This document shows positions 25,428 through 47,320 of a stretch of DNA of 64,000 nt, piece by piece. Under the pieces are notes generated by a model. It had not been told where the DNA came from. It saw nothing but the letters and a program-made list of their open reading frames with translations, and did not search any database. Within the stretch, counting starts at the first letter, position 1. Each line of letters begins with the position of its first letter. The DNA comes from an uncultured Candidatus Babeliaceae bacterium (GTDB lineage: Bacteria > Babelota > Babeliae > Babelales > Babelaceae), in NCBI GenBank assembly GCA_963704655.1, contig OY969927.1, forward strand, positions 352,001 to 416,000, written 5' to 3'. A program made the translations under genes and the position numbers.

Positions 25428-25436
25428 ACTTTGTAA

Positions 25437-26862: not shown

Positions 26863-28185
26863 ATGTACAAAAAAACTTTTATCTCATTATTCTTATTATT
26901 TATTGCAATATGTCATGCACAAATACCGAACGAAATTCTTTCAACACCCGCACTTACGGGAATCTTTGATGGCCCTGGAGGGGGAGTAGCAATAACACCT
27001 AATGGTGAATATGCCTATGTTACTAACGGGGCCGGAACTACTGTAAGCGTTATACAAATTTCTAATAATACTCTATATGCAACAATATCTGGTTTTGATT
27101 TACCGCAAGGAATAGCAATAACACCGGATGGACAATATGCCTATGTCACTAACGAGGCCGGAACTACTGTAAGCGTTATTGATCTTAGGCCAGCAAGTCC
27201 CACCTATAATCAGATAGTATCAACAATAACTGTTTCTGGTCAACCATTTGTAATAACAATAACACCGAATGGTGATTATGCCTATGTTTCTAATGTCGCA
27301 TACGTTATAAATGTTATTAAAACTTCTGATAATACCGTGCTAGTAACACCAGGATTAACAAACACTTTTAGAGAACCCAATGGAATAGCAATAACCCCAG
27401 ATAATCTTTTTGCCTATGCTGCTGATTCTCAAGAAAATACGGTTAGTGTTATTGATATTGATCCTTCAAGTGCCAACTATAATACGATAAAAGAAGTTAT
27501 AACTGGTTTTTCTTATCCCGATATAATAGCAATAACACCAGATGGACAATATGCCTATGTTGCTAATGCTGGTAATAGTGGGGGGTGTGTAAGTGTTATT
27601 GATCTGAGGCCAGCAAGCTCCACCTATAATCAGATATTATCAACACCAGGATTAACAACTGGTTTTAATGAACCCAGAGGGCTAGCAATAACACCAGATG
27701 GGCAATATGTCTATGTTACTAATACCAATGGAAATAGTGTAAGTGTTATACAAATTTCTAGTAATACCATACTTTCAACACCTGGTTTAACGAGTGGTTT
27801 TGATGAGCCCTTTGCAGTAGCAGTGACACCTGATGGACAATATGTCTATGTTGCTGATTTTGGTGCTAATAGTGTGGTTGTTCTCTACAGCCCCGCACCC
27901 TTGAATGCTAGTGGTTGCAAAAGAAAGGATAACTTTTTAACGCAAACAGATAACTATAATCATCTTACCTGGTCAGCACCAGAAGCGGGTTCACCCGCTG
28001 CATATCAAATTTACCGCGATGCAGCATTAACGCAATTAGTTGCAACTGTGCCTGCCTCTGGCATTTTGCAGTATGATGATCATAATCGAAATCCAAATGT
28101 AAATTACACCTATTATATTGTTGCAGTTGATGCTTCAGGAAATCTTTCATCGCCTGCTGTTACTACCGTTACACAATCTTGTTAG
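26863..28185 (+). CDS. Secreted YVTN/YncE beta-propeller protein with FN3-like C-terminal domain
   Basis: Signal peptide; repeated AITPDGQYAYVTN....VSVI; C-terminal domain GCKRK...TTVTQSC. Confidence 0.88.
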   Translation: MYKKTFISLFLLFIAICHAQIPNEILSTPALTGIFDGPGGGVAITPNGEYAYVTNGAGTTVSVIQISNNTLYATISGFDLPQGIAITPDGQYAYVTNEAGTTVSVIDLRPASPTYNQIVSTITVSGQPFVITITPNGDYAYVSNVAYVINVIKTSDNTVLVTPGLTNTFREPNGIAITPDNLFAYAADSQENTVSVIDIDPSSANYNTIKEVITGFSYPDIIAITPDGQYAYVANAGNSGGCVSVIDLRPASSTYNQILSTPGLTTGFNEPRGLAITPDGQYVYVTNTNGNSVSVIQISSNTILSTPGLTSGFDEPFAVAVTPDGQYVYVADFGANSVVVLYSPAPLNASGCKRKDNFLTQTDNYNHLTWSAPEAGSPAAYQIYRDAALTQLVATVPASGILQYDDHNRNPNVNYTYYIVAVDASGNLSSPAVTTVTQSC

Positions 28186-28254
28186 AGGTATTGATTTGTA
28201 TGCGCACAATATGTTTTAGTAAGAAAAAAATTCAAACTTTTGAAAGCGGGTATC

Positions 28255-29532
28255 ATGTTTAAAAAATCTTTTATATTTTTGGTATCGCTTTTTAGCATAG
28301 CGTGCCAGGCACAAGAGTTAAGTTATATCTTACCAACACCTGGCTTAGAAAGCGGTTTTAATAGTCCTATAAATGTGGCAATAACACCAGACGGTCAATA
28401 TGCCTATGTCACAGATAGTGGCAGTAATAGTGTGATTGTTATAGATGTTGCAAGTAATACCATTTTATCAACCCCTTATTTAACGGGTGTCTTTTCTGAC
28501 CCTTTTGGAATCGCAATTACCACCGATGGCAAATATGCGTACGTTACTAATGTTGGCAATAATACTGTAAGTGTTATAGATATAGCAAATAAAACCATAG
28601 AAACGTTAGCAACCGGTTTTTATGAACCGTTTGCAATAGCAATAAAACCAGATAATAGCTATGCCTATGTTACCAATCTTAGCAATGATAGTGTAAGTGT
28701 TATACAGATCTCGAATAATGCCGTAACAACACCAGCTGGTTTAAGCACGGGCTTTAATAGTCCAAGGGCAATAGCAATAACACCAAATAATACCTATGCT
28801 TATGTTACCAATTCAGACGGAAATTCGGTAAGCGCTATAACGCTTTCTAGTAATACTATTTATGCGACCATTACAGGATTTTATTATCCCGGTGCAATAG
28901 CAATTACACAAGATAGTAACTATGCTTATGTTGCCAATTCCGACAATAACACTGTCAGTGTTATACAAATTTCTGACAACACCATACTGCCAATATCTGG
29001 ATTAGATACTGAGTATGTTCCTCAAGGAATAACAATAAGTGGTAACTATGTGTATGTTACTTCTGGTAATGCTCCCTATGGTGCTGTCAATGTTATACTA
29101 ATCTCTGATAATAAGCTCTTATCAGTCCCAGGTTTATTAAGAGGTTTTGATGAGCCTCGAGGAATAGCAATAACCCCTAATGGGCAATATGGGTATGTGG
29201 TTAATTATGATAGTCATAGTGTAACTGTCATCTACAATCCTACGGTCTTGAATGTGAGTGGATGCAAAAGAAAAAATATCTTCTTAACGCAAATTGATAA
29301 CTATAATCATCTTACCTGGGCTGCACCGGCAGCGGGTGAACCCGCTGCATATCAGATTTACCGCGATGCAGCGTTAACGCAATTAGTTGCAACTGTGCCT
29401 GCCTCTGGCATTTTGCAGTATGATGACCATAATAGAAACCCGAATATAAATTACACCTATTATATTGTTGCAGTTGATGGTTCAGGAAATGTTTCAGCAC
29501 CTGCTGTTACTACCGTTACACAATCTTGTTAA
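28255..29532 (+). CDS. Secreted YVTN beta-propeller protein with FN3-like C-terminal domain
   Basis: Same architecture; likely start MFKKSFI. Confidence 0.88.
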   Translation: MFKKSFIFLVSLFSIACQAQELSYILPTPGLESGFNSPINVAITPDGQYAYVTDSGSNSVIVIDVASNTILSTPYLTGVFSDPFGIAITTDGKYAYVTNVGNNTVSVIDIANKTIETLATGFYEPFAIAIKPDNSYAYVTNLSNDSVSVIQISNNAVTTPAGLSTGFNSPRAIAITPNNTYAYVTNSDGNSVSAITLSSNTIYATITGFYYPGAIAITQDSNYAYVANSDNNTVSVIQISDNTILPISGLDTEYVPQGITISGNYVYVTSGNAPYGAVNVILISDNKLLSVPGLLRGFDEPRGIAITPNGQYGYVVNYDSHSVTVIYNPTVLNVSGCKRKNIFLTQIDNYNHLTWAAPAAGEPAAYQIYRDAALTQLVATVPASGILQYDDHNRNPNINYTYYIVAVDGSGNVSAPAVTTVTQSC

Positions 29533-29548
29533 CATGAAAGTGAGTATA

Positions 29549-30820
29549 ATGTTTAAAAAATCTTTTATCTTAATGTTCTTGCTTGTAAGTGCAGTATGCC
29601 AGGCACAAGAACCTAACACGATACTTAATACACCTTATTTAGATGGCGGGTTTAATGAACCGCAAGGTGTTGCTGTAACGCCAAATGGTCAATATGCCTA
29701 TGTTTGTAACTACGGCGAAAGTACTGTGAGCGTTATAGATGTCTCTACCAACTCAATAGCAACTGTGATATCAGGTTTTGATTACGGACCGCAAGGAGTA
29801 GCAATAACACCAGATGGCAAATACGCTTATGTTACTAATAATACTGGAAACAGCGTAAGCGTTATAAATTTATCAACCAATTCAATTTTGACAACAATAC
29901 CGGGTTTTAATCAACCAGTAGGAGTAGCAATAACACCAGATGGCAAATACGCTTATGTTTGTGCTGGCGGTGATGTAAAGGTTATAGACGTATCTACCAA
30001 CACCGTATCAGCAACGATAACTGGTCTTGATGATACCGCTGGAATAGCAGTTACACCAGATGGGCAATACGCCTATGTTACTATCCCGTTTGAGGGCTAT
30101 GTCGTCGTTATAAAAACTAAAGACAATTCAGTATTGACAACAATAACCGGCTTTTCTGAGCCGCAGGTACTAGCGATCACGCCGGACAACAAATACGTTT
30201 ATGTTGGAAACACTTATCAGTTAAAGGTAATAACTATTGCGGATAATGAGATATCAACAACGATATCTGGCTTTAATTTTATCTCTGGAATTTCAATAAC
30301 TCCTAATGGGCAATATGCGTATGTAACTAATTTCAATGGAAATAGTGTGAGTGTTATAGACTTAATCCCGACAGATCCAGCCTATAATACTATAATTTCA
30401 ACACCTGGCTTAGAAAGTGGGTTTACTTTTCCTGCTGGAATAGCGATCACACCAAATGGTAGCTATGCATATGTTACGAATCTATTTGGAAATAGTGTAA
30501 ATGTCATTTTTATTAAAACGCCTCTTACTGCGCCGGTTAATTTTAGCGGATGTAAAAGAAAGAATAGCTTTTTAACATCAGTTGATAATTATAACCACTT
30601 AACCTGGTTTGCATCGAGCGCCGGAACACCCGTATCGTATCAAATTTACCGCGATGCAGCGTTAACGCAATTAGTTGCAACTGTGCCTGTCTCTGGCATA
30701 TTGCAGTATGATGACCATAATAGAAATCCGAATATAAATTACACCTATTATATTGTTGCTGTTGATGGTTCAGGGGATGTCTCTGAGCCAGTAATTACTA
30801 CCGTTACACAATCTTGCTAA
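29549..30820 (+). CDS. Secreted YVTN beta-propeller protein with FN3-like C-terminal domain
   Basis: Same architecture; likely start MFKKSFI (alternatively 29534). Confidence 0.88.
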   Translation: MFKKSFILMFLLVSAVCQAQEPNTILNTPYLDGGFNEPQGVAVTPNGQYAYVCNYGESTVSVIDVSTNSIATVISGFDYGPQGVAITPDGKYAYVTNNTGNSVSVINLSTNSILTTIPGFNQPVGVAITPDGKYAYVCAGGDVKVIDVSTNTVSATITGLDDTAGIAVTPDGQYAYVTIPFEGYVVVIKTKDNSVLTTITGFSEPQVLAITPDNKYVYVGNTYQLKVITIADNEISTTISGFNFISGISITPNGQYAYVTNFNGNSVSVIDLIPTDPAYNTIISTPGLESGFTFPAGIAITPNGSYAYVTNLFGNSVNVIFIKTPLTAPVNFSGCKRKNSFLTSVDNYNHLTWFASSAGTPVSYQIYRDAALTQLVATVPVSGILQYDDHNRNPNINYTYYIVAVDGSGDVSEPVITTVTQSC

Positions 30821-30893
30821 AGGTATTGATTTGTATGCGCACAATATTTTATGGTTTAGAAAGAAAAAACATTCAAACATGAAAGTGAGTATA

Positions 30894-31271
30894 ATGTTAA
30901 AAAAATCTTTCCTATTGTTGAATTTGTTTGCTGCAGCAGGTCAAATGCTACATGCTACACCTGAAAGTCCCATTAATTTTAAAGGGTGCAAAAATAAAGA
31001 TATCTATTTGACGCAAATCGATAATTATAACTATCTCACGTGGGCAGCGCCAGATTTAGGCCCTCAGCCGGTATCATATGAGATTTTTCGCGCGAACTTT
31101 ACCAATGATACCCTTGTACTTGTTGCGACCGTTTCAGGCTCTGGAATATTAGAGTACTATGATCATGACAGAGACCCAAGTATAAATGATGAGTATGTAA
31201 TTTACGCATTAGATGCATCTGGCTTTCACTCTGTGCCTACAAGAACTACCGTTACTGAAAATTGTAATTAA
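30894..31271 (+). CDS. Secreted stand-alone FN3-like domain (no propeller)
   Basis: Signal peptide MLKKSF..HA followed directly by GCKNK.IYLTQIDNYN.LTW...TTVTENCN. Confidence 0.8.
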   Translation: MLKKSFLLLNLFAAAGQMLHATPESPINFKGCKNKDIYLTQIDNYNYLTWAAPDLGPQPVSYEIFRANFTNDTLVLVATVSGSGILEYYDHDRDPSINDEYVIYALDASGFHSVPTRTTVTENCN

Positions 31272-31296
31272 ATCTTCACATAAAAAAAGGAAAATT

Positions 31297-31902
31297 ATGA
31301 AAAATACAAAAAAATTATATCTCGGCTTATTGTTATTAAGCGCATGCTTGAATATACACAGTAAAAGAGACGTTATGTTAGAGTTCAAAGGCGCCTTTTT
31401 TCAACCAATAAACTGTACCTTTAAAAATATCTACGGCGGCGGGGCGTTTTTTGGGCCTGAACTGACCTTTAATATTTTCAGAAATATTCATGGCTTTGTA
31501 AGTTATGACTATTTTACTAAAAATGGTAACACTATTGGCTTAAGTACACCAACATCTGTTAATTTTATGGCGCTCGGCGTTGGGGTGAAATTCATGGGCT
31601 GTGTCAGCGACCATGCTCGTCTGTACGCTGGCTTAGGTTTTGAACCAGTATATTTAACGACAAAAAACTGCTCACCATACGTTACACCAAAAACGCAAAA
31701 ATGGGGCTTTGGTGGCATAGCTAAATTCGGTGCTTATATCGATTTACCACACAGCTTTGTACTCGATCTTTTTGCCGATTATTCATTTGTTAAAGTTTCG
31801 CCAAGCTGCTGCACCGGTTCACCTCTTGGTTATATTCAACCAACCAAAGCTGATTTAAGCGGCTTTATCTTCGGCGCTGGCCTTGGCTATCGTTTTAATT
31901 AA
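31297..31902 (+). CDS. Outer-membrane beta-barrel protein (small, OmpW/OmpA-like size)
   Basis: Signal peptide, alternating amphipathic strands, C-terminal GAGLGYRFN beta-signal. Confidence 0.8.
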   Translation: MKNTKKLYLGLLLLSACLNIHSKRDVMLEFKGAFFQPINCTFKNIYGGGAFFGPELTFNIFRNIHGFVSYDYFTKNGNTIGLSTPTSVNFMALGVGVKFMGCVSDHARLYAGLGFEPVYLTTKNCSPYVTPKTQKWGFGGIAKFGAYIDLPHSFVLDLFADYSFVKVSPSCCTGSPLGYIQPTKADLSGFIFGAGLGYRFN

Positions 31903-31917
31903 GTCTTAATATATTTA

Positions 31918-31941
31918 TATCAGGGGCGAACGCCCCTGATA
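31918..31941. terminator. Hairpin / terminator
   Basis: atcaggggcg-aa-cgcccctgat. Confidence 0.65.
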
Positions 31942-31960
31942 TCTTTTAAAGGTAAATGCA

Positions 31961-33361
31961 ATGATAAGAAAAATTATAATGTTCTTTATACTGATTTTTA
32001 GCAGTGTATTTTTTCAACATCTTTATTCACAAGAGCCAAATACGGTTTTAGGTATCGTTTCAGACCCCAATGCTACAATTGCTTATCCAGATGCTATAAC
32101 TATAACACCCGATGGGCTCTATGCCTATGTCGCTAATGAGAAGCCAACACTAAGCATAGTTGATCTAAATCCTTTAAATCCGACTTATAACTCAGTAATT
32201 GGTGTAGTATCTGGTCTTAATTCCCCTAGCGCTTTAGCAGCAACATTTGATAACAAATACCTGTATGTTGCTAATTATTATGACGGTGTGAGTATAGTAG
32301 ATAGAGCAACCAACACGGTAACCGGTGCTGTTGAAGATACAGGTTTTCCTTTTCTTGGTCCATATAGCGTGGCAATAACACCTAATAATCTCTATGCCTA
32401 TGTCGCTAATTATGGTATTAACTTCACTGCCGGTACCACAGTAAATATTGTTGATTTAGATCCATTATCTACCAACTACAACAAAGTTATTGGTATTGTA
32501 TCAGATCCTAGTGATACTTTTAATGGCCCTAGCGCAATAGCGATAACACCAGATGGGCTTCATGCCTACGTTGCTAATTATGGCTTTCCAGACGGTGGTA
32601 CCACAGTAAGTATTGTTGATCTAGATCCATTATCAACCGACTACAACAAAGTTATTGGTATTGTATCAGATGCTGGCAATACTATACAAACACCAAATGC
32701 AATAACAATAACGCCCGATGGAACGCGTGCCTATGTTGCAAATAATAATGGAAACACTGTCAGTATTATTGATTTAGATCCACTATCTGACAATTACAAT
32801 AGAGTTATTGGCACAGTATTAGACCCTCTTTCTACCATCAATGCTCCTACTGATGTGGCAATAACACCTGATAATCTTTATGCCTATGTTGCAAATAATA
32901 ATGGAAACACTGTAAGTATAGTAAGTTTAGAAAACAATACGGTAATAGGGACGGCGATAGATCCAAATTTCACTCTTAATGGACCATACTGGCTTGATGT
33001 AACACCTAATGGCAGCTATGTATATGTGGCTAATATTAGTGGCAGCAGTGTGAGTATTATAGGTTCAGATATAGTAAATAATTTCAGCGGATGTAAACGA
33101 AAGAATCTTTTTCTGAATCAAGTTGATAATTACAATCATCTTACCTGGTCTGCTCCAAATAACTTTATTGCAGTGAGTTACCAAATATATCGAGATGCAG
33201 CCCTTACGCAGCTTGTCGCTACAGTTCCTGCTTCGGGAATATTGCAATACGATGACCATAATAGAAACCCAAATGTGAATTATGGTTATTATATAGTTGG
33301 TGTAAATGCTTTAGGTGCTCAATCAGGTTTTGCAGCAACCACTGTTACACAATCTTGTTAA
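31961..33361 (+). CDS. Secreted YVTN beta-propeller protein with FN3-like C-terminal domain
   Basis: ITPDG..AYVAN repeats; C-terminal domain GCKRKN...TTVTQSC. Confidence 0.88.
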   Translation: MIRKIIMFFILIFSSVFFQHLYSQEPNTVLGIVSDPNATIAYPDAITITPDGLYAYVANEKPTLSIVDLNPLNPTYNSVIGVVSGLNSPSALAATFDNKYLYVANYYDGVSIVDRATNTVTGAVEDTGFPFLGPYSVAITPNNLYAYVANYGINFTAGTTVNIVDLDPLSTNYNKVIGIVSDPSDTFNGPSAIAITPDGLHAYVANYGFPDGGTTVSIVDLDPLSTDYNKVIGIVSDAGNTIQTPNAITITPDGTRAYVANNNGNTVSIIDLDPLSDNYNRVIGTVLDPLSTINAPTDVAITPDNLYAYVANNNGNTVSIVSLENNTVIGTAIDPNFTLNGPYWLDVTPNGSYVYVANISGSSVSIIGSDIVNNFSGCKRKNLFLNQVDNYNHLTWSAPNNFIAVSYQIYRDAALTQLVATVPASGILQYDDHNRNPNVNYGYYIVGVNALGAQSGFAATTVTQSC

Positions 33362-36702: not shown

Positions 36703-36810
36703 TGGGAAAATTGGTCAATAAAGACCAGAAAAAGTATAAAACTTTAAAGAATGCGATTGATTAGCGATAAAATCGATCTGTGGCTGCAAATCTTTTAAAA
36801 TGGCACCCCA

Positions 36811-36838
36811 ATTGTGTATAATGCTACTTATATACAAT
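36811..36838. promoter_or_regulatory. dif-like tyrosine-recombinase site (11-6-11)
   Basis: ATTGTGTATAA-TGCTAC-TTATATACAAT; arms are inverted with one mismatch and have the inner ATAA-N6-TTAT core of dif sites. Confidence 0.75.
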
Positions 36839-36880
36839 ATGCGTCAATTTTGACGATCTAGACAGTTTAAAGGAGCTGTA

Positions 36881-37846
36881 ATGAAGAATAATACTATTGC
36901 GTTAACAAGTAGCCGTGAACTTACTCACGAGCAGGCGTTATTTTTAAAAAAGGAAGCCGTTTGGAAAAACTTGGCCGACATCACCGTCGCGCAAGCGGTC
37001 AAGCAATGGCTGGCTACCCTCAAAAGTATAACAGCAAAAAATTACACAAGTGGCATTAAACAACTTGCCAAGTGTAAGCTGATAGACATGAAACTTTCCC
37101 TACAGCTTTTTTCACTTATTAACCATGATGCCATTATAGACCAGATAAAAATTTTACCCGAACTTTCTGAATGCTCCAAGCAAGCGCGCGCGGCGTGTTA
37201 TATTTCGTTCACCCGTTTTTTATCCAGAAGAACGCAGGGAGTTATACCAAAAGCAACCCCAAGTCGCGAAGGTGTTTCAAAGACTTTTTATAGGGTACGG
37301 GATAAAGTGGCTACCGAGGCAATGACCCGTGCGCAATGGACAGACTTTTTGGATGAACTCCACAAAATCAATCCACGGGATTGCCTTATTGCAAAGGTTA
37401 TTTTACAAGGGGGCAAAAGGTTATCAGAAGTTTTAAGCCTGACAACTGATAAAATTGATTTTATTAAACGTGAGATTACTTTTAGACAATCAAAGACAAA
37501 GGGCTATGAAAAAGAGACGGTAATAACGTATCCACAAACTATACTTGATGAACTGAAAAGTTATCTTGATGGTCGGCAAGGTCTTGTCTTTGTAACCAAT
37601 AAATTTAAACCGATTATGCCTAACCAACTTGCCGTTACCTTTGAAAGAGCCGGTGTCGCTGCCGGAGCACCCTTTAAGGTTACCCCGCACGTCCTGCGCG
37701 CATCGGCAATCACCTATTTAAAATTGTCCGGATATTCTGATAGTGATATCATGAAAATTTCAGGGCATGCCAACTCAGCCATGGTTAATGCTTACGACAA
37801 AAGCGACCGTGCACTTAATATTAGTAAAAAAGTGAGTTTAGTATAA
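36881..37846 (+). CDS. Tyrosine recombinase, chlamydial plasmid pGP7/pGP8-D-like
   Basis: Catalytic set GKRLSEV / QSKTK / TPHVLRAS / SGH....V.AYD; QARAACYISFTRFL block recalled from pGP8-D; SD AAGGAG. Confidence 0.88.
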   Translation: MKNNTIALTSSRELTHEQALFLKKEAVWKNLADITVAQAVKQWLATLKSITAKNYTSGIKQLAKCKLIDMKLSLQLFSLINHDAIIDQIKILPELSECSKQARAACYISFTRFLSRRTQGVIPKATPSREGVSKTFYRVRDKVATEAMTRAQWTDFLDELHKINPRDCLIAKVILQGGKRLSEVLSLTTDKIDFIKREITFRQSKTKGYEKETVITYPQTILDELKSYLDGRQGLVFVTNKFKPIMPNQLAVTFERAGVAAGAPFKVTPHVLRASAITYLKLSGYSDSDIMKISGHANSAMVNAYDKSDRALNISKKVSLV

Positions 37847-37889: not shown

Positions 37890-37926
37890 AAAAGTGGCGC
37901 ACGAGGATCGACCCAGCGCCACTTTT
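37890..37926. terminator. Hairpin after the recombinase gene
   Basis: aaaagtggcgc...gcgccactttt. Confidence 0.6.
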
Positions 37927-38058: not shown

Positions 38059-39783
38059 ATGAAAATAAAATTACTTTCACTACTTACGTTACTTGCAGCG
38101 CTGCAGATTCATGCGACAGAAGTTGCACCGCAAGCTGCAATTCCAGCAATTACTTTTACTGCATATCTCCATACTCCCCTTTTTACTCTTAAGGGCCATA
38201 CACAGAGTGAAAACTCGAGTGAAAACCCGAGTGTAAACTCTATCGTATTTTCACCTGATGGTACAAAAGTTGTTACTGCTTCAGATGATAAAACTGCAAA
38301 AATCTGGGATGTTGCAACGGGTGAATTACTGCACACGCTTAAAGGTCATACAGGCTATGTGTGGTCAGCCGCATTTTCACCTAATGGCAACTATATTGTT
38401 ACTGCTTCAGCAGACGGTACTGTAAAAATCTGGGATGTTGCAAATGGTACATTAATAAGAACTCTTGAGGGTCATACAGATTGGGTGATATCAGCCGCAT
38501 TTTCACCCGATAGCAGTAAATTAGTGACTGCATCCAATGATAGAACTGCAAGAATTTGGGATGCTTCAACTGGTCAAATACTACACATTCTTAAAGGGCT
38601 TGTATTATCTGCTGCATTTTCTCCTGATGGCACCAAAGTGGTGACTACATCACTAGATGGATCAACAGGAGTTTGGGATGCACGAGTTTGGGATGCACAA
38701 ACCGGTACATCCATCTTTTCACTTGCAGGTGCTTCTTGGGCAAATGATGCCGCTTTTTCACCAGATGGCACTAAAATAGTTACCGCTGTTGGAGATAACG
38801 CAAAAATCTGGGAAGTGGAAACTGGTGCTTTAATCCGCACTCTTGTAGGGCATACGCAAGGGGTAAGCTTTGCCGCCTTTTCGCCAGATGGCAGGTATGT
38901 TGTTACTGCTTCTTGGGATAATACAGCAAGAATCTGGGATGTTGAAACTGGTCAACTACAACACACACTTAAAGGACATACATATAAGTTAATATTCGCG
39001 ACATTTTCAGCCGATGGGAACTATGTTGTTACTGCTTCTTGGGATAATACTGTACGTCTCTGGGATGCTTCAAATGGACAAGAAGTATTACGAATTAGCA
39101 CACGTTCATATGGTAATGAAGAGATTATTTGGAAACCAATAGACAAAAATCATGTAATAAGTAAACCAGGAAATGATTTATCCTCCGCTGCATTTTCACC
39201 TGATGGCACCAAAGTAGCTACTGGTTGTTATAATGGCACGATAAAAATTTGGGATATTACTCAAGCGCTATTTCAGTATGAAAAATTTATAACTATAAAA
39301 TCTATTACTGATTTAAAAGAAAAATTTGAAAACATAAAAGATAAAATCTACAAGAAATTGCGCGTATTAAACACAATGTTTGCTGATCCATTATTAACTG
39401 AAAGTGAAAAGAAAAATATACATACTTTTGCTCAGAGACTGAATGGATTAAACATTTTGGGAACACAAAAGAGTAGAGAAGGTGGTATTAGAGGCGCCAT
39501 AGATACTCGGCTTATAGCTTTAAATAACTTACCAATGGAATTAGAAAAAGCCAATAATGCCCGACAGTTTGCTGATTTTAAAAAGAAGATGCTTGATATC
39601 AACAGTGATTTACAAAAAATTGAAACCCGAATGCGCGAAATCTTTCAAGATTCTCAAGTAGTTGAGCAACGCTACCAAGATGCTCTCAAGCAGAGAAGAT
39701 TTAAGGGGACCGCATATTTAGGAATGAGAAAACCCAAATCAGCTCAGGCTCAGGCGGCTCAAGAAGAACCGGAAATAGATTAA
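38059..39783 (+). CDS. Secreted WD40-repeat protein 1, coiled-coil tail
   Basis: MKIKLLSLL signal peptide; GHT..V.SA.FSPDG..VVTAS.D.TAKIWD repeats. Confidence 0.92.
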   Translation: MKIKLLSLLTLLAALQIHATEVAPQAAIPAITFTAYLHTPLFTLKGHTQSENSSENPSVNSIVFSPDGTKVVTASDDKTAKIWDVATGELLHTLKGHTGYVWSAAFSPNGNYIVTASADGTVKIWDVANGTLIRTLEGHTDWVISAAFSPDSSKLVTASNDRTARIWDASTGQILHILKGLVLSAAFSPDGTKVVTTSLDGSTGVWDARVWDAQTGTSIFSLAGASWANDAAFSPDGTKIVTAVGDNAKIWEVETGALIRTLVGHTQGVSFAAFSPDGRYVVTASWDNTARIWDVETGQLQHTLKGHTYKLIFATFSADGNYVVTASWDNTVRLWDASNGQEVLRISTRSYGNEEIIWKPIDKNHVISKPGNDLSSAAFSPDGTKVATGCYNGTIKIWDITQALFQYEKFITIKSITDLKEKFENIKDKIYKKLRVLNTMFADPLLTESEKKNIHTFAQRLNGLNILGTQKSREGGIRGAIDTRLIALNNLPMELEKANNARQFADFKKKMLDINSDLQKIETRMREIFQDSQVVEQRYQDALKQRRFKGTAYLGMRKPKSAQAQAAQEEPEID

Positions 39784-39792
39784 AGGGACACT

Positions 39793-41238
39793 ATGAAGAT
39801 ACAATTACTTTCACTACTTACGCTACTTGCAGTGCAGCAGATTCATGCGACAGAAGTTGCACCGCAAGCTGCAATTCCAGCAAGTACTTTTACCGCGTAT
39901 ATCGATATTCCCCTTTTGACCCTTAAAGGACATGCCCAAAGTCTACGTTCAGCAGCTTTTTCACCAGATGGCACTAAAATAGTGACTGCTTCAGCTGATG
40001 CAACTGCAAAAATCTGGGATGCAAAAAATGGCGCATTACTCTTTACTCTTGAAGGGCATACAGCTTCTGTAAACGCAGCGCAATTTTCACCTGATGGTAA
40101 GTATATAGTCACGGCTTCAGCTGATAATACTGCAAAAATTTGGAGTGTTGAAACTGGCCAATTACTGCACACGCTTGAAGGGCATACAAAGCCGGTATCA
40201 TCAGCCTCATTTTCACCTGATGGTACCAAAGTCGTTACTGCTTCACTAGATGGATCAACAAGAGTTTGGAATGTTGCAACTTGGCAATTACAATACACTC
40301 TTCAGGGCCATACAAAGAGGGTATCCTCAGCACAATTTTCACCAGATGGCACTAAAATAGTTACAGCTTCTGCTGATGAAACTGCAAAAATCTGGGATGC
40401 TTCAACTGGTCAAGTACTACACATTCTTAAAGGTCATCCAGATGGGGTCTATTCTGCTTCATTTTCACCTGATGGCAAATTTATTGTTACTATCTTCCAT
40501 AAAGCGGCAAAAATCTGGGATGCCCAAACTGGTGCTTTAATAAGAGATCTTATAGGTCATACAGAATTTGTACTTTCAGCAGCTTTTTCACCTGATGGCA
40601 GGTATGTTGTTACTGCTTCATGGGATACTACTGCAAAAATCTGGGATGTCCAAACTGGTAGATTTATAATAACTCTTCACCATACAGGTTGGGTAAACTC
40701 TGCCTCTTTTTCTCCTGATGGCACAAAAGTTGTTACTACTTCAACGGATGGTACTGCAAAAATCTGGGATGTTACCCAAGAGCTATTTTATTATGAAAAA
40801 TTAATAACTTCAAAATCTATTGATGCTTTAAAAGCAAAATTTGAAAATATTAGAAATGAAATTTATGAAAAACTGCACGTATTGAACGCAATGTTTGGTG
40901 ATCCTGTATTAACTGAAGATTTTGACAAGAAAAGAATACACGAACTTGCTCAAGAACTTTATAAATTAAACATTTTGGGAACACAAAAGAGTAGAGAAGG
41001 TGGTATTAGAGGCGCCATAGATACACGGGTTATAGCTATAAATAACTTACCAATGGAATTGGAAAAAACTAATAATGCCCGCCAGTTTGCTGATTTTAAA
41101 AAGAAGATGCTTGATATCAACAGTGATTTACAAAAAATTGAAACCCGAATGCGCGAAATCTTTCAAGATTCTCAAGTAGTTGAGCAACGCTACCAAGATG
41201 CTCTCAAGCAGAGAAGATTTAAGGGGCCGCATATTTAG
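39793..41238 (+). CDS. Secreted WD40-repeat protein 2; tail duplicated from gene 1, last ~20 aa lost by a 1-nt deletion
   Basis: WD40 repeats; 3' end near-identical to gene 1 (aaggggaccgc vs aaggggccgc). Confidence 0.9.
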   Translation: MKIQLLSLLTLLAVQQIHATEVAPQAAIPASTFTAYIDIPLLTLKGHAQSLRSAAFSPDGTKIVTASADATAKIWDAKNGALLFTLEGHTASVNAAQFSPDGKYIVTASADNTAKIWSVETGQLLHTLEGHTKPVSSASFSPDGTKVVTASLDGSTRVWNVATWQLQYTLQGHTKRVSSAQFSPDGTKIVTASADETAKIWDASTGQVLHILKGHPDGVYSASFSPDGKFIVTIFHKAAKIWDAQTGALIRDLIGHTEFVLSAAFSPDGRYVVTASWDTTAKIWDVQTGRFIITLHHTGWVNSASFSPDGTKVVTTSTDGTAKIWDVTQELFYYEKLITSKSIDALKAKFENIRNEIYEKLHVLNAMFGDPVLTEDFDKKRIHELAQELYKLNILGTQKSREGGIRGAIDTRVIAINNLPMELEKTNNARQFADFKKKMLDINSDLQKIETRMREIFQDSQVVEQRYQDALKQRRFKGPHI

Positions 41239-41314
41239 GAATGAGAAAACCCAAATCAACTCAAGCTCAGGCGGCTCAAGAAGAACCGGAAATAGATTAA
41301 AAAAAATGGACAGT

Positions 41315-42949
41315 ATGAAGATAAAATTACTTTCACTACTTGTACTATTCGCGGTGCAGCAGATTAATGCGACAGAAGTTGCACCGCAAGCTACAATTCC
41401 AGCAATTACTTTTACTGCATATCTCCATACTCCCCTTTTTAACCTTAAAGGCCATACAAGTTTGATATTCTCAGTAGCCTTTTCACCAGATGGTAAATAC
41501 ATAGCCACAGCTTCAGCAGATGGAACTGCAAAAATATGGGATGCTCAAACAGGTGCTTTAATAATAACTCTTGCTCGTGAAGGAAATACAGAAAGTGTAT
41601 ACTCAGCAGCTTTTTCACCAGATAGCACCAAAGTAGTTACTGCAGAATGGGATGATACTGCAAAAATATGGGACATTACCCAAACGCTCATCAAGTATGA
41701 AAAAATTAAAAGAGAAGCTGCTACTTCAAAGGGTAGTACTACAAAAACTTGGGTTGCAGTGACGGGAAATCCGCTCTATATTCTGCAACACAAAGGCTCG
41801 GTAAACTCAGCACAATTTTCACCTGATGGGACCAAAGTTGTGACTGCTTCATGGGATAACACCGCAAAAATCTGGAATGCTCAAACTGGTGCTTTAATAA
41901 TAACTCTTGAGGGTCATACAGCTTTGTTAGACATTGCCATATTCTCACCAGATGGTACAAAAATTGTTACTGTTTCACGGGATAAAACGGCAAAAATCTG
42001 GGATGTTGCAACTTGGCAATTACAATACACTCTTGAAGGTCATACAGATTGGGTGAATTCAGGCTCATTTTCACCCGATAGCAGTAAATTAGTGACTGCG
42101 TCCAATGATAAAACAGCAATGATTTGGGATGTTACAACGGGTGAACATTTAAACATCCTTAAAGGGCATACAGATTCTGTAAACTCTGCTTTATTTTCAC
42201 CAGATGGCAAATACATAGCAACAGCTTCAGTAGATGGCACTGCAAAAATCTGGGATGTTGCAACTTATGCTTTAGTCTGCACATTTAAGGGGCATAAAGA
42301 TCATGTAAGCTTTGCACACTTTTCACCCGATGGAAAATATATTGTTACTGCATCCAATGATGGAACTGCAAAAATTTGGGATGCCGCAACGGGAACTTTA
42401 ATCTGGACGCTTAAGGGGCATACAAATAGAGTTATAGAAGCACTATTTTCACCTGATGGGACAAAAGTAATGACTGCTTCATGGGATAATACTGCCAAAG
42501 TTTGGGATGTTACCCAAGCGTTATTTCAGCATGAAAAAATTAAAACACTAAAAACTATTGATAATTTACAAAAAATATTTGAAGGAATCAGATATCTGAT
42601 TCATAAGAAATTAGCTATACTCAGCAACTTATTTGCCGATGAATCGGTATCCCCAGAGCTTAAAAAGAAGTTAATGGAAATTGGTAAAAGACTTAATGGA
42701 TTAAACATTAATGGTGCCAAGAATGCAAGAGGCAATGCGATAAATAAAGAATTAGAAGCACATTTAGAAAAAACCAATAACGCGCAACAACTTGCTGTTA
42801 TTAAAAAACGCATAAACACTCTAGACCAAGAATTACAACGCATTCAAACCAGACTGGAAGCAATTAATCAAGAATCTCAGGCTATTGAAGAAACTATACC
42901 AGAAGATGTTAGACAGCGGGCTGCGAAAGCATATGGACAGCGCACTTAG
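41315..42949 (+). CDS. Secreted WD40-repeat protein 3
   Basis: Start reassigned to MKIKLLSLL; WD40 repeats; coiled-coil tail. Confidence 0.9.
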   Translation: MKIKLLSLLVLFAVQQINATEVAPQATIPAITFTAYLHTPLFNLKGHTSLIFSVAFSPDGKYIATASADGTAKIWDAQTGALIITLAREGNTESVYSAAFSPDSTKVVTAEWDDTAKIWDITQTLIKYEKIKREAATSKGSTTKTWVAVTGNPLYILQHKGSVNSAQFSPDGTKVVTASWDNTAKIWNAQTGALIITLEGHTALLDIAIFSPDGTKIVTVSRDKTAKIWDVATWQLQYTLEGHTDWVNSGSFSPDSSKLVTASNDKTAMIWDVTTGEHLNILKGHTDSVNSALFSPDGKYIATASVDGTAKIWDVATYALVCTFKGHKDHVSFAHFSPDGKYIVTASNDGTAKIWDAATGTLIWTLKGHTNRVIEALFSPDGTKVMTASWDNTAKVWDVTQALFQHEKIKTLKTIDNLQKIFEGIRYLIHKKLAILSNLFADESVSPELKKKLMEIGKRLNGLNINGAKNARGNAINKELEAHLEKTNNAQQLAVIKKRINTLDQELQRIQTRLEAINQESQAIEETIPEDVRQRAAKAYGQRT

Positions 42950-42967
42950 AGAATTAAAAGGACACTT

Positions 42968-44590
42968 ATGAAAATAAAATTATTTTTACTACTTACAATA
43001 CTGGCAGTGCAGCATGCACATGCAGCAGAAGTTGCGCCGCAGGTTGAAGCACCACAGGTGATTATAGTAAACACCCCTGTTCTTACTCTGAATGATCCAA
43101 ACAATTTTGAAACAGCCTCATTTTCACCTGATGGTAGATATTTTGTTGCTACTGCAGGTTTGGCTGCACAAATTTGGAGCGTTGAAAATCGTGCATTAGT
43201 ACGCACTCTTGAAGGCCAGACAAAGATGGTCACATCGGCTCGATTCTCTCCCGATAGCAGATATATTGTTACTACATACTGGGATGGCGCTACTAAAATC
43301 TGGGATGCTGCAACTGACAAAGAAATAAGACCTCTTATAGGTCATACATTTTGGGTATGGAGAGCGGCATTTTCACGCGATGGAAGATTTATAGTTACCG
43401 CTAGCATGGATGGCACTGCAATTATTTGGGAAGTTGCTACTGGTAAGAAGATTCGCACAATAACAATCGATCGAGATATTGCTTATTCAGCCACGTTCTC
43501 ACCTGATGGTACAAAAGTTGCTATTGCTTTAAGTAATAATATCGCACAAATTTGGGATATCAAAACAGGTCAACAACTTACCACACTTATCGGCCATACA
43601 AGCGAGGTAGTAGATGTTGCATTTTCACCTGATGGCACTAAAATTGCTACTGGTTCAGCAGATCACACGATAAAAATTTGGAATCCGCAGACTGGTCAAA
43701 TAATCCGTACACTTAATGGCCATACCGGAGCTATAAACTCTATTGAGTTTTCACCATATGGCAACTATGTGCTTTCTGCATCTTATGATGGCACTGCAAG
43801 AATCTGGGATGTTGAAACTGGTCAAGAAGAAATTCGAATCACTGGCCATACTGACCACGTGAATTCGGCCTCATTTTCACCTGATGCAAACAAAGTAATC
43901 ACAGCCTCAAATGATAAAACCGCAAAAATGTGGGACATCAGAAACTTGCTCATTAATGAAAAAAAAGGACCGTTTAAAAATCTGATTTCCTATTTAAAAC
44001 AAACACTTGATAATCTCAAAAAAGAATTTTTTAACGAAGTTAATAAAGGTGCACGTACAGAGTTGCCGGGCACAAACCCGGAAGAAACTGCACATATACC
44101 TGAAATGCCATCGTCACATGCTTGGCGAGTTTGGCAGGCGGATCCAAACAACAAAGGCTCGATGCCTGCGCAAGAAGTGATACCATTCCTATGGAAAAAA
44201 AGAAAAAGTTTAGTTCAACAGTTTAATGCTTTAAAAGTGAGAATCGATGATTTTGAAAGAGCAGTTGATGCGGCTCAAATGGTAAATGAGCTTGAAACTA
44301 TCAGAAATACGGGCAAACAAATTATGACCGATTTAGAGCACGTTAAAAATATAGGTGTCGCTCAGTTTATAAAAGTTGTGCGTATTAAACATATGATTAA
44401 TGAGCTACAAAACCAGTTAGCCGGTTTGCCAGATTTACAAGAAAGAATTAATGGACTTGATGATGCTATTGAGCACTCTCAAACTGAAGGTGAGATTATA
44501 AGAGTCACTCAAGAATTAGAAATAATTAAAAACCAGATCCCCCAAGTACGAACAAGTACAAAGCGTAAAGCAGAGGAGATTTCTCAATGA
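42968..44590 (+). CDS. Secreted WD40-repeat protein 4, helical tail ending in KRKAEE
   Basis: Signal peptide and WD40 repeats. Confidence 0.9.
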   Translation: MKIKLFLLLTILAVQHAHAAEVAPQVEAPQVIIVNTPVLTLNDPNNFETASFSPDGRYFVATAGLAAQIWSVENRALVRTLEGQTKMVTSARFSPDSRYIVTTYWDGATKIWDAATDKEIRPLIGHTFWVWRAAFSRDGRFIVTASMDGTAIIWEVATGKKIRTITIDRDIAYSATFSPDGTKVAIALSNNIAQIWDIKTGQQLTTLIGHTSEVVDVAFSPDGTKIATGSADHTIKIWNPQTGQIIRTLNGHTGAINSIEFSPYGNYVLSASYDGTARIWDVETGQEEIRITGHTDHVNSASFSPDANKVITASNDKTAKMWDIRNLLINEKKGPFKNLISYLKQTLDNLKKEFFNEVNKGARTELPGTNPEETAHIPEMPSSHAWRVWQADPNNKGSMPAQEVIPFLWKKRKSLVQQFNALKVRIDDFERAVDAAQMVNELETIRNTGKQIMTDLEHVKNIGVAQFIKVVRIKHMINELQNQLAGLPDLQERINGLDDAIEHSQTEGEIIRVTQELEIIKNQIPQVRTSTKRKAEEISQ

Positions 44591-45897
44591 AAATAAAATT
44601 GCTTTCATTACTTATACTTGCGGTAATAACCGCAAAGCACATACACGCGTCTGAAAAATTGGAAGAGTTAAAAGAGAAAGCGGTGTATGGGAATATGATG
44701 TCGCTTGAAATCCCCACTATATCACTTATAGGTAACCAGGGTGCGGTCTTTCCTGCCTCTTTTTCACTTGATGGCATGCAAATAGTTACCGCTGGAGATG
44801 ATGGGATCGTAAGAATCTGGGACGCGCAAACGGGAAAATTACTCCAAACGCTTACTGGCCATACAATGGCAATAGGTTCGGCGGTCTTTTCACCAGATGG
44901 TGATCAAGTAGTCTCTGTTTCGCTTGATGGTACAGTACGTATATGGAACGCTCAAACGGGCACATTACTACAGGAAATTATAGTTTCTGCTGGGGCATTA
45001 TTTTCGGTAGCATTTTCACCTGATGGCACAAAAATAGCTGCTGCAGGTGCTGATGGAAATGTAAGAATCTTTAATGCAAAAAATGGTGAATTATTACAAG
45101 TAATTACTGGCAATACCAAAGAGGTAACTTCAGTGGCCTTTTCAGCAGATGGTGAATGTATACTCACTGCAGGCGCTGATGGCAGCATAAGAATGTGGAA
45201 TATTGAAACGGGTGAAGAAAGACTCACGCTTACGGGACGAGATACGAGCCCAGTATATTCGGCCTCTTTTTCATCTGATGATGCGTACATAGTTTTTGCT
45301 GGCGCAGATGGAATTGTAAGAATCTGGGATGTTGCCAAGCACACATTAGTAGGAAAACTTATTGGCCATGCCAAAGCAATATCTTCAGTGGCATTTTCAG
45401 ATGATAGCCGATTAATTGTTTCGGCTTCAAAGGATAATACAGCAAAAATCTGGGATGTCCAAACAGGGCAATTAATCCGCACCCTTAATCTTCAAGACAA
45501 CGTCAACTCAGCCTCTTTCTCGCCTGATGGCACGAGCATCGTTACTGCGTGCCAAGATGGTAGCGTAACGATTTGGGATATCAGCAAAACTGTTAACTGG
45601 GTAGAGGATGGAAAACTTGTTTGCCCGATATGCACCATGCGATTCCCTTTTAGAAATAATTTTAATTCACACATGTTCTTTGAGCATCCACTAGCTTCTG
45701 CTAAAAACCCTGAGGGAAAGCCTAAGTTGGCGCGCGCGAAAAAAAAGAAGGCTACGCCCAAGTTAAAAACAATTGGCAAAAAGAAACCTGCGCCCGCTGC
45801 ACCCATAACAGAACCGGTAATAGAGCCGATAGTTCAAGAAGCACCTGCATTAACTCCAGAGCAAGAGGAAGAACTCATTAAAGAGCTTCTTATATAA
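44587..45897 (+). CDS. Secreted WD40-repeat protein 5 with C2H2 zinc finger and basic patch
   Basis: CPICTMRFPFRNNFNSHMFFEH followed by KPKLARAKKKKATPKLKTIGKKK. Confidence 0.9.
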   Translation: MKIKLLSLLILAVITAKHIHASEKLEELKEKAVYGNMMSLEIPTISLIGNQGAVFPASFSLDGMQIVTAGDDGIVRIWDAQTGKLLQTLTGHTMAIGSAVFSPDGDQVVSVSLDGTVRIWNAQTGTLLQEIIVSAGALFSVAFSPDGTKIAAAGADGNVRIFNAKNGELLQVITGNTKEVTSVAFSADGECILTAGADGSIRMWNIETGEERLTLTGRDTSPVYSASFSSDDAYIVFAGADGIVRIWDVAKHTLVGKLIGHAKAISSVAFSDDSRLIVSASKDNTAKIWDVQTGQLIRTLNLQDNVNSASFSPDGTSIVTACQDGSVTIWDISKTVNWVEDGKLVCPICTMRFPFRNNFNSHMFFEHPLASAKNPEGKPKLARAKKKKATPKLKTIGKKKPAPAAPITEPVIEPIVQEAPALTPEQEEELIKELLI

Positions 45898-45928
45898 ATA
45901 GAATAAGTTTTATTAAAAAAGGGACAGT

Positions 45929-47212
45929 ATGAAGATAAAATTACTTTCACTACTTTCGTTACTGGCAGTTCAGCAGATTCATGCGGCAGAAGTTGCACAA
46001 GTGTCACAAGGCACTTCAGCGTATGCCATTGCGCAGGCGCTGCGGCCATTAGCTATCATTAATAACAATGGTGAAATCAATAGCGCAGCAATTTCACCCG
46101 ATGGCAAATACATAGTTACCACGTCTCTTAATACAGCACCAAAAATTTGGAATGCTCAAACTGGTGAATTCATCAGGGAGCTTTCTGCCCGGAACACAAT
46201 GCAAGCAAGATTTTCACCTGATGGCAAAAAAGTTGCTGTTATCAGTAGCGATATAATAATTTTTGATACCGAAACAGGAAATGTAGAAATGCGCTTAGCT
46301 TTCAGATTTTCTCACCCAGGCGCTGGCATTAGTACAAAAAGTTTGGCATTTTCAGCCGATGGAACTAAAATTATCAGCGGTGAAGAATATGGTACAAAAA
46401 TTTGGAATACCGCAAATGGTAAAGAAATTATACATATACTGTCAGGAGATACAGACGCTGTAGCATTTTCACCTGATAGTAATCAAGTTCTGACTTCTTC
46501 TAAAAAAAGCGAACGCCAAAAGCGGGGGATTGAAAAAACAGTGATGCTTTGGGATGCTTCAAATGGCCAATTAATACATACTTTTGATGGTCAACATTGG
46601 GGCGCTTCATTTTCTCCTGATGGAAGTCAAATAATTATGTGCTCAGATAGTAATGTTGCCGAAGTTTTTAATACCCAGGCGCTCAATAGAACTCATTGGC
46701 TTAAAGTGGTACCTCCCAGCAATATTTTCACTCCTGAGGAAATGCAATCAGCCGCCTTTTCTCCTGACGGTGAGATAGTTACTGTATCTTTAGCAGAGCA
46801 TGCGCGATTGTGGGATGCTCAAACTCGCAAGATAAAATCAACATTTGATACTTCAACCCCCAATGCTGAAATGAGCTCTATACATCCAGATTCATTTGCA
46901 CGTGATGGTAAGTTTGTTCCTCTTTTAAGGATAAAACCTCATTATGACTTAGCAAATATAGTAGAAGTTTTTAATATCGGTCAACTAGAAATTAAAGAAT
47001 ATTTCAAGAATAAATTATTACCTCTTAAGCAACAATCACTTTTAGTAACGTTGGACGCGCTTTCACGCCAAAAAAATGGCCGGCCCATTAAAAAAAGTGA
47101 TCTTGTTGCCGACCCAAGACAAGATACATCAGCATTATTCAAAGGAATGCCACAACGCGTTATAGATGCCTTAAAGCGTGTATATAAAATTGATGAGGAT
47201 GTTTTTATATAA
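45929..47212 (+). CDS. Secreted WD40-repeat protein 6 (divergent repeats)
   Basis: Signal peptide; FSPDG / IW repeats. Confidence 0.85.
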   Translation: MKIKLLSLLSLLAVQQIHAAEVAQVSQGTSAYAIAQALRPLAIINNNGEINSAAISPDGKYIVTTSLNTAPKIWNAQTGEFIRELSARNTMQARFSPDGKKVAVISSDIIIFDTETGNVEMRLAFRFSHPGAGISTKSLAFSADGTKIISGEEYGTKIWNTANGKEIIHILSGDTDAVAFSPDSNQVLTSSKKSERQKRGIEKTVMLWDASNGQLIHTFDGQHWGASFSPDGSQIIMCSDSNVAEVFNTQALNRTHWLKVVPPSNIFTPEEMQSAAFSPDGEIVTVSLAEHARLWDAQTRKIKSTFDTSTPNAEMSSIHPDSFARDGKFVPLLRIKPHYDLANIVEVFNIGQLEIKEYFKNKLLPLKQQSLLVTLDALSRQKNGRPIKKSDLVADPRQDTSALFKGMPQRVIDALKRVYKIDEDVFI

Positions 47213-47320
47213 AAACTGATTTCTTATCCTCAATAGCTTTGAAACTCTTTCTTTTTAATAGTTGCCCATACTATAATTATAATAACAATAGGAAATTATT
47301 TTTTTTAAAGAGGGCGACTT

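Follow-up and report, generated by a model that had tools for sequence, protein, structure and literature searches.

A conserved palindrome in front of a chromosomal Pgp7/8-type recombinase gene of Candidatus Babeliaceae as a candidate recombination site

The chromosome of an uncultured Candidatus Babeliaceae bacterium carries a near-perfect 28-bp palindrome directly in front of a gene for a tyrosine recombinase of the type found on chlamydial plasmids (Pgp7 and Pgp8). Do the palindrome and the recombinase form one system, and what would such a system do in a chromosome? The locus was analysed in a window, a stretch of 64,000 bp comprising positions 352001-416000 of the single contig (1,298,077 bp, 38% G+C) that makes up the genome, here labelled G000. 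Coordinates are those of the window unless they are given as genome positions. The original prediction had taken the pair for a candidate one-subunit Xer/dif system. Comparison with related loci indicates that the palindrome is very probably the core recombination site of the whole Pgp7/8 family. A role of the module in resolving chromosome dimers in this genus is a more tentative proposal. The features of the locus are as follows.

36811-36838, no strand assigned: 28-bp candidate core recombination site, 11-6-11 (arm, centre, arm), unique in the genome and with a conserved core
36811-36821, no strand assigned: left arm ATTGTGTATAA, putative binding site of one recombinase monomer
36822-36827, + strand: centre TGCTAC, putative strand-exchange region, which gives the site its polarity
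36828-36838, no strand assigned: right arm TTATATACAAT, placed by the sequence and by the family and upstream alignments
36794-36822, + strand: promoter-like TTTAAA-17-TATAAT, a consensus match at 10/12 positions and the best promoter-like site 5' of the recombinase gene
36871-36875, + strand: AGGAG, resembling a ribosome-binding site (RBS), 5 nt 5' of the ATG
36881-37846, + strand: tyrosine recombinase of the Pgp7/8 family, 321 aa, with a helical N-terminal core-binding domain and a catalytic domain, and without an arm-binding domain

The reverse complement of the right arm, ATTGTATATAA, has one mismatch to the left arm, at arm position 6. The site is separated from the ATG of the recombinase gene at 36881 by 42 bases (36839-36880). 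The palindrome, the 1-nt difference between its arms and its distance from the start codon were thus found again as predicted when the sequence was re-read. With up to 3 mismatches allowed, the 28-mer occurred once in the window, and 0 of 100 shuffled sequences contained any match. The genome has 100 inverted repeats of the 11-6-11 form (≤1 mismatch) and 157 ATAA-N6-TTAT cores, and this site alone combines the two. The nearest other 28-mer, with 5 mismatches, is at genome position 726,146, 337 kb off, and is the sole other match within 7 mismatches. No second site, and no 17-mer half-site plus centre (≤2 mismatches) that could pair with the site, was found in the genome. Since no second site or half-site flanks a segment, the locus does not have the form of an integrative element (IMEX or integrase-attL/attR).

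The degenerate site at genome positions 726,146-726,173 (5/28 mismatches) is situated between divergent genes. Estimated roughly by hand, chance would give ~0.04 such matches. The open reading frames (ORFs) beside it encode 300 aa without a Pfam family and 205 aa with a weak GNAT match, and neither is a recombinase. A scan for DnaA boxes also flagged part of the left arm, TGTGTATAA (36812-36820), which is 1 mismatch from the complement of the consensus box. This resemblance is probably a coincidence of AT-rich motifs.

The recombinase matched the Pfam family Phage_integrase (PF00589) with an E value of 2.7e-22 over residues 148-309. The catalytic residues R180, K205, H270, R273, H296 and Y305 were invariant in an alignment of 15 sequences of diverse homologues, which confirms the intact R-K-HxxR-H-Y set noticed before. 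A tblastn search of plasmids gave 138 matching records, 112 of them from Chlamydia, with 45-51% identity across 96-97% of the protein. Identity to the integrase of the Criblamydia plasmid (89.5 kb) was 58%. The suspected likeness to pGP7/pGP8-D therefore amounts to 45-58% identity to chlamydial plasmid integrases. The protein 'Virulence plasmid integrase pGP8-D [Chlamydiales bacterium]' and Parachlamydia integrases were 57-60% identical. The closest proteins (76-89% identity) are metagenomic, and the named ones among them bear the names Candidatus Babeliaceae or Babeliales. All NCBIfam Xer models scored below their cut-offs: archaeal XerA 82 bits against 220, XerC 42 against 335, XerD 28 against 330 and XerS 25 against 267.

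An AlphaFold 2 (AF2) model of the protein, with a mean predicted local distance difference test score (pLDDT) of 79.5, has a catalytic domain preceded by a helical N-terminal domain. Its best structural matches in the PDB were XerA (5hxy), XerH (5jk0/5jjv), and Tn1549 and lambda Int without their arm domains, with 287-343 columns aligned; Cre was also among the matches. A profile search of PDB sequences gave archaeal Xer (4a8e, E 1e-12). As modelled, the protein has a simple two-domain recombinase fold which is closest to XerA and XerH, the type needing a core site only.

Site and gene across the Pgp7/8 family

All 5 of the other genomes from this genus (5/5) encode an orthologue of the recombinase, at 68-81% identity, and so does one genome of another genus, G009 (61%). 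The remaining 18 of the 20 Babeliaceae genera sampled do not have the cassette of site and gene and gave weak matches to their own XerC/D-like genes only. The palindrome was found 5' of the gene in all 7 Babeliaceae copies having upstream sequence. Each gene copy in G001-G004, G009, G041 and G044 has one site, and none of the sites is without a gene. When five upstream sequences were aligned, 22 of the 24 core columns of the site were invariant. The flanks could scarcely be aligned, so that the site is the only conserved island. Read in gene direction, the centre is TGCTAC in G000, G001, G002, G003 and G004:C2, and TGCTAT in G009. The centre TGCTAC also occurs at the chlamydial loci L054, L060, L048 and L076. 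Among the recombinase orthologues, nonsynonymous divergence (pN) was 0.13-0.27 and synonymous divergence (pS) 0.74-0.87, with synonymous sites saturated. Since pS is saturated against a low pN, and since the core of the site is invariant amid diverged flanks, sequence comparison puts both gene and site under purifying selection, and by this measure the module is not decaying.

The whole family was scanned with one genome per species, which gave 64 loci, mostly from environmental Chlamydiae. Twelve partial matches and one locus with short upstream sequence were set aside, leaving 51. A site was scored as a 9-6-9 inverted repeat with ≤1 mismatch and a TAA-N6-TTA core, ≤335 bp upstream of the gene; stretches of equal size inside or downstream of genes served as controls. 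Such a repeat was found upstream at 29/51 family loci, in both phyla, compared with 2/195 control stretches. The arms were TGTTTATAA at 19 loci, TGTGTATAA at 5, AGTTTATAA at 2, and TCCTTATAA, TGTATATAA and ATAATATAA at 1 locus each, and both arms changed together. This co-variation is the signature of a symmetric protein-binding site. The centres varied more than the arms (AGCCGC at 8 loci, TGCTAC at 6, and many singletons). In the genomes with two recognisable sites, the centres differed in 4/4. Differing centres within one genome would block recombination between the copies, as expected of live crossover sites. A 28-bp site with a 321-aa recombinase and natural centre variants could serve as an orthogonal recombination tool.

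Plasmids of chlamydiae carry inverted repeats of this kind as well. On the 89.5-kb Criblamydia plasmid, TTGTTTATAA-AGCCGC-TTATAAACAA stands 214 bp 5' of the integrase gene. A related repeat whose arms differ from these, C(C/T)TGATTA-N6-TAATCAGG, was found 5' of the pgp8-type gene in 5/5 plasmids of the Chlamydiaceae type that were examined. The offset, computed for two of them, puts its beginning 51 and 57 bp ahead of the start codon. In the Chlamydia trachomatis record the repeat sits within a ~100-bp unannotated gap ahead of pgp8. The repeats of these 7.5-kb plasmids are located as follows.

L177 (NC_010286.1), 991-1012: repeat of a Chlamydiaceae-type plasmid
L080, 2873-2900: repeat of 28 bp with perfect arms
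L077, L078 and L081: repeat upstream of each of these loci

The palindrome is very probably the core site of the family, because the repeat stands upstream of the gene in both phyla, the two arms change together and each gene copy has one site. On the same sequence evidence, we consider it highly likely that site and recombinase are a cognate module. The earlier suggestion that the palindrome might reveal the target of pGP8-like enzymes has gained from this coupling across the family and the chlamydial plasmids, which makes it a strong candidate. Pgp7 and Pgp8, which are conserved plasmid genes, would thereby have a concrete and testable target sequence. In the available part of one paper Pgp7/8 are regarded as presumed plasmid multimer resolvases (PMC11895440). 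No paper naming a target site for them was found in the literature outside subscription journals and supplementary files.

The portion available of a 2021 survey places pgp7/8 in chlamydiae only and also describes copies on chlamydial chromosomes (PMC7846284). The gene studied here is not borne on a plasmid: it lies at 388.9 kb of the chromosome contig, between proS and WD40 genes. In a quick IQ-TREE phylogeny of 52 rows, without a non-family outgroup and rooted on Chlamydiaceae pGP8, the 7 Babeliaceae rows amounted to one label change inside an unresolved chlamydial polytomy. The long branches of pGP7 and Clavichlamydia joined inside the Babeliaceae group, a placement that is probably an artefact. 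The chlamydial sequences are far more diverse, which hints at transfer out of chlamydiae into Babeliaceae. The presence of Pgp7/8 in Dependentiae goes beyond the chlamydiae-only distribution given in the survey as available (PMC7846284) and shows that genes have passed between two groups of amoeba-associated bacteria that are not related.

Chlamydial-type cassettes were also seen on contigs of metagenome-assembled genomes (MAGs) labelled Bacteriovoracaceae, Verrucomicrobia, Pseudobdellovibrionaceae or Clostridia (L045, L051, L056, L064, L080). They fall among the chlamydial sequences in the tree and are probably chlamydial or plasmid contigs in wrong bins.

The replication terminus and the other recombinases

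Along the genome the cumulative GC skew is lowest at 1,043,876 and highest at 398,658, the top being a plateau that spans ~378-399 kb. The minimum coincides with the densest cluster of DnaA boxes in the genome (8 boxes with ≤1 mismatch in 800 bp), and the origin was therefore placed at ~1,044 kb. Opposite the origin, the antipode falls at ~395.0 kb, and the site (genome position 388,811) is 6.2 kb away from it, in the middle of the plateau. Counted in 10-kb windows, the skew was +0.13 and +0.10 to the left and -0.06 and -0.10 to the right, with values of ~0 flanking the site. A skew maximum near the site, proposed as a check of the original prediction, was thus found, the site being inside the 378-399 kb plateau.

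Three other markers were tried and rejected. Skewed 8-mers tracked local gene orientation, peaked at 377 kb and reversed again at 401-410 kb, with no gain over GC skew for fine mapping of the terminus. The strand bias of long ORFs gave no usable signal of the replichores. The dnaA gene, at 235.7 kb, is at neither skew extreme, and the DnaA-box cluster was used instead. The terminus zone contains dnaN and a recF-like gene (24246-26561, - strand), dnaA is at genome position 235,696, and DnaA boxes are at 1,043,946-1,044,177. The usual origin gene cluster is scattered in this genome, because dnaN and the recF-like gene are at the terminus, dnaA is at 235.7 kb and the boxes and skew minimum are at 1,044 kb.

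The cassette is 1.8 kb from proS and is linked to proS in G000, G001, G003 and G004:C2, the same-genus relatives being drafts. The genome has two PF00589 genes, the Pgp7/8-type gene and one XerC/D-like gene. RecA is present, and so is FtsK with its gamma domain; chromosome dimers can thus be expected to form, with the usual activator at hand. A search for xerC, xerD and a separate dif, also suggested earlier, found no complete pair. A scan with a loose core motif, and one of 360-420 kb for other inverted repeats, gave no convincing candidate for a canonical dif near the terminus. The only matches to the dif motif in the terminus zone, at 371,925 and 375,224 with one mismatch each, overlap ORFs and were rejected. 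The inverted repeats in 360-420 kb were mostly terminator-like hairpins, with one ATAA-N6-TTAT candidate at 419,215.

At 23217-23244 (genome position 375,217) we noticed GACCCAAATAA-AGCCGC-TTATATTAAAG, a sequence with asymmetric arms within an ORF of 270 aa. It has a dif-like core and shares its centre with the most frequent chlamydial sites.

Other families of the order have two strong XerC/D-type genes. Most Babeliaceae have one strong and one weak gene, or the weak one alone. We call this weak, divergent Xer-like recombinase of Babeliaceae, ~300-340 aa in length, B-type. B-type proteins are 44-75% identical among 12 genera and 22-29% identical to the XerC/D-like protein, and have no detectable relation to the Pgp7/8 protein; their best family scores were 126 bits for XerA and 107 bits for XerD, both below cut-off. 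The loci are listed here.

L028, G009:C1:403248-404216: B-type gene
L023-L034: L028 and 11 more B-type loci

Matches to B-type (E ≤ 1e-15) were found in 33 of 41 Babeliaceae genomes, in two of them weakly (27-39% identity), and in several B-type was the only tyrosine recombinase found. Within the genus studied here it occurs in one of 6 genomes (G001, 39% identity), and neither a B-type gene nor a relic of one was found in G000. The B-type gene is at the +/- switch of the skew in G009, G006 and G023, that is in 3 of the 7 genomes checked. Its distance from proS is 5 kb in G023 and 23 kb in G009. A search for inverted repeats, shared 10-mers and shared TAA-N6-TTA 28-mers revealed nothing conserved as a site beside B-type genes. 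The one 10-mer common to the loci was rejected as an ankyrin-repeat coding motif.

Possible role of the module

The module can be compared with several known systems. It shares with Pgp7/Pgp8 of the 7.5-kb Chlamydia plasmids and the larger Criblamydia, Rhabdochlamydia, Simkania and Waddlia plasmids a full-length identity of 45-58% and the catalytic residues, and an upstream inverted repeat with a 6-bp spacer is found there too. In contrast to these genes, the Babeliaceae gene is chromosomal, in another phylum (Dependentiae), single-copy and at the terminus. As in Xer/dif systems, there is a single site of ~28 bp with inverted arms and a 6-bp centre, at the terminus in this genome, but the protein falls outside the recognised Xer families as defined by the XerA, XerC, XerD and XerS models. 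The XerS/difSL system of streptococci and lactococci has one recombinase and a gene-linked site at the terminus, as described in the parts available of two papers (PMC1914069, PMC2731167). The Babeliaceae module shares the single recombinase, the gene-linked site and the terminus location with it, while the 25 bits of the protein are far from the XerS cut-off of 267. difSL is longer and asymmetric, in contrast to the near-perfect 11-6-11 palindrome of Babeliaceae. XerH/difH of Helicobacter and Campylobacter and archaeal XerA/dif are likewise single recombinases with near-symmetric arms, and gave the best structural and PDB sequence matches (5hxy, 4a8e, 5jk0, 5jjv). They are nevertheless remote, at 15-20% identity in structural alignments, and the Babeliaceae protein belongs to the plasmid Pgp7/8 clade, of other origin.

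Cre/loxP of phage P1 is alike in its two-domain recombinase, in the inverted arms around an asymmetric spacer and in having the gene beside the site, an arrangement as found in plasmid multimer resolution of the Cre/loxP type. The Babeliaceae recombinase would likewise act as a homotetramer; its likeness to Cre is at the level of the fold only. loxP has the form 13-8-13, whereas the Babeliaceae site is 11-6-11, and its inner arms, ATAA/TTAT, are those typical of dif. XerL/dif of Legionellales is described, in the part of the report available, as single-recombinase dimer resolution in intracellular bacteria which was found via a mobile element, the xerL orthologue of Coxiella being plasmid-encoded (PMC9765430). 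Likened by this description, it is a precedent for the sharing of a dimer resolvase between plasmid and chromosome; the activity of XerL has been shown experimentally, whereas that of the Babeliaceae module is predicted. In its predicted working the module resembles single-recombinase Xer and Cre/loxP systems, and by sequence it belongs to Pgp7/8.

The sequence shows directly how site and gene are built, related, coupled and conserved, where they lie relative to the terminus, that the B-type gene is lacking and that RecA and FtsK-gamma are encoded; we infer binding, assembly, cleavage positions, autoregulation and role as follows. Two recombinase monomers would bind the two near-identical arms, and two occupied sites would synapse as a homotetramer. 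Strands would then be exchanged across the 6-bp TGCTAC, as in Cre/loxP or single-recombinase Xer; the presumed cleavage positions follow the established geometry of Xer, Cre and lambda core sites. Occupancy of the site probably damps transcription of the recombinase gene itself, because the left arm overlaps the best -10 element; the hexamer TATAAT (36817-36822) is inside this arm. On a plasmid, the module would resolve multimers of its own replicon. Babeliaceae would have gained it laterally from the chlamydial gene pool, and in this genus it would have become fixed in the chromosome beside proS, with a single site copy, inside the terminus zone. The only partner of a single chromosomal site is its copy on the sister or dimeric chromosome, and we therefore propose that the module resolves chromosome dimers in this genus, taking over from the B-type recombinase. 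The evidence fits a replacement of B-type by the acquired module in the neighbourhood of the terminus; this is one evolutionary event, for which we make no statistical claim.

On the sequence evidence, domestication of the module for dimer resolution, in this genus only, seems to us a serious possibility that falls a little short of an even balance. The fullest version of the proposal is unlikely to hold in all its parts. It would have a terminus-linked Xer-like recombinase displaced, at the level of the genus, by a chlamydial-plasmid module which crossed between phyla, probably in a shared amoeba host, and now serves as a dimer-resolution system, with the same repeat, including CCTGATTA-N6-TAATCAGG 5' of pgp8 on the 7.5-kb Chlamydia plasmid, as the Pgp7/8 target. 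If the chromosomal role is true, a plasmid resolution module that replaced the native Xer would be added to the small set of single-recombinase systems (XerS, XerH, XerA, XerL). New here are a candidate target site that applies to the Pgp7/8 family as a whole, the finding that this family is not confined to chlamydiae, and a native Xer-like gene that may have been displaced.

Several observations weigh against the chromosomal role or narrow it. The XerC/D-like gene of the genome is intact (310 aa, ~530 kb; 240 bits for XerC and 237 for XerD, both below cut-off), and its product could act alone. How finely the terminus can be placed is limited by the skew plateau; line fits gave 377-406 kb and the skewed 8-mers 377 kb. 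The B-type gene is off the skew switch in G008, G052 and G053 and ambiguous in G046, and B-type and cassette coexist in G001 and G009. By the criteria used in the family scan, 22/51 loci had no such site ≤335 bp upstream. The G009 cassette, at 840 kb, is ~430 kb away from the skew switch of that genome (~405-410 kb). A large serine recombinase and a Toprim protein are encoded ≤~8 kb upstream of this cassette and a CdiI-like immunity protein downstream (L137:11580-16243 and L138:1-3031 of G009:C1, ~831-843 kb). The 20-kb stretch starting at the cassette is of lower G+C (33.7%), and, judged by sequence, these surroundings resemble an integrated mobile element. The complete chlamydial chromosome G041 has its site at 805 kb, a long way from the switch at 1,150-1,300 kb. 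The terminus position is thus not conserved among relatives carrying the cassette, both G009 and G041 having it elsewhere, and it rests on one insertion event in one genus. The chance of landing ≤~20 kb from the terminus is ~3%, and terminus regions tend to gather foreign DNA. For chlamydiae, a canonical dif of their own has been predicted where the skew shifts, according to the available part of one study (PMC3025954). Outside this genus the module travels with plasmids and islands, because the cassettes of G009 and G041 are off the terminus and chlamydiae have their own predicted dif. Domestication, as originally suggested, agrees in this genome with the terminus position and with the lack of a full XerCD, stays a hypothesis for this genus and is not supported as a general rule.

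The module might instead be the leftover of an integrated plasmid or mobile element in a permissive terminus, without a role in segregation and either harmless or serving an episome, while the XerC/D-like protein resolves dimers at a site we did not recognise and the position at the terminus is coincidental. We regard this as a substantial alternative, somewhat less probable than the dimer-resolution role. It agrees with the family being typically plasmid-borne or in chlamydial chromosomal islands, as stated in the part of the survey available (PMC7846284), with the mobile-element genes around the G009 cassette away from the terminus, with the absence of the cassette from most genera and with the retained XerC/D-like gene. 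Extra copies and a paralogue of 43% identity in G004 and G001 point the same way, as do the paralogous WD40/beta-propeller arrays with flat skew which surround the site. A mere remnant is harder to reconcile with purifying selection on gene and site at the proS-linked locus across the genus, past synonymous saturation. The cassette is flanked by no other plasmid-type gene, its neighbours being proS and small ORFs (132 aa, 173 aa). The loose motif and inverted-repeat scans gave no convincing canonical dif in the terminus zone, and the usual B-type recombinase has been lost here. The relic of an integrated plasmid, named as an alternative in the original prediction, thus stands as a possible origin of the module, but not as a decaying one, since gene and site are under purifying selection.

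Two further explanations concern the palindrome itself. It could be mainly an operator, in which case the protein would have lost its recombination activity and been co-opted as a DNA-binding protein that regulates its own promoter and perhaps further genes. The -10-like TATAAT inside the left arm speaks for such a function, and Pgp8 of one Chlamydia species is reported, in the portion of the paper available, to repress chromosomal genes (PMC13711795). The six catalytic residues are nevertheless invariant in the diverse homologues, conservation extends to the asymmetric 6-bp centre, for which a pure operator would have no need, and the differing centres of copies in the same genome are hard to explain for an operator. 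We think this explanation quite improbable. The chromosomal site could also be a docking site (attB x attP) for the reversible integration of an episome which has the same site and is missing from the assemblies. Simple recombinases can integrate circles with an identical site, plasmids are often omitted from MAG or single-contig assemblies, and traffic between Xer sites and plasmids has a precedent in intracellular bacteria, as far as the available text of the report goes (PMC9765430). Against docking, neither this genome nor G001-G004 or G009 has a segment flanked by a second site, whole or half, and no plasmid contig with the site was found among the genus genomes searched; this explanation appears still a shade less probable than the operator.

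Neighbouring features

The ORFs 5' of the site are small. The one of 132 aa is genus-specific, and the one of 173 aa was found in this genome alone among the loci searched. Neither has a Pfam family or linkage to chlamydial cassettes. Paralogous arrays of beta-propeller (lactonase/NHL-like) and WD40-repeat genes, at 26863-33361 and 38059-48664, flank proS and the cassette and fill much of the flat-skew plateau.

Two smaller repeats accompany the recombinase gene. A small perfect hairpin, CGTCAATTTTGACG, is located at 36842-36855, between the site and the RBS. An inverted repeat, AAAAGTGGCGC...GCGCCACTTTT (37890-37926), was missed by the scan owing to its long loop; it starts 44 bp past the stop codon of the recombinase gene and may be a terminator.

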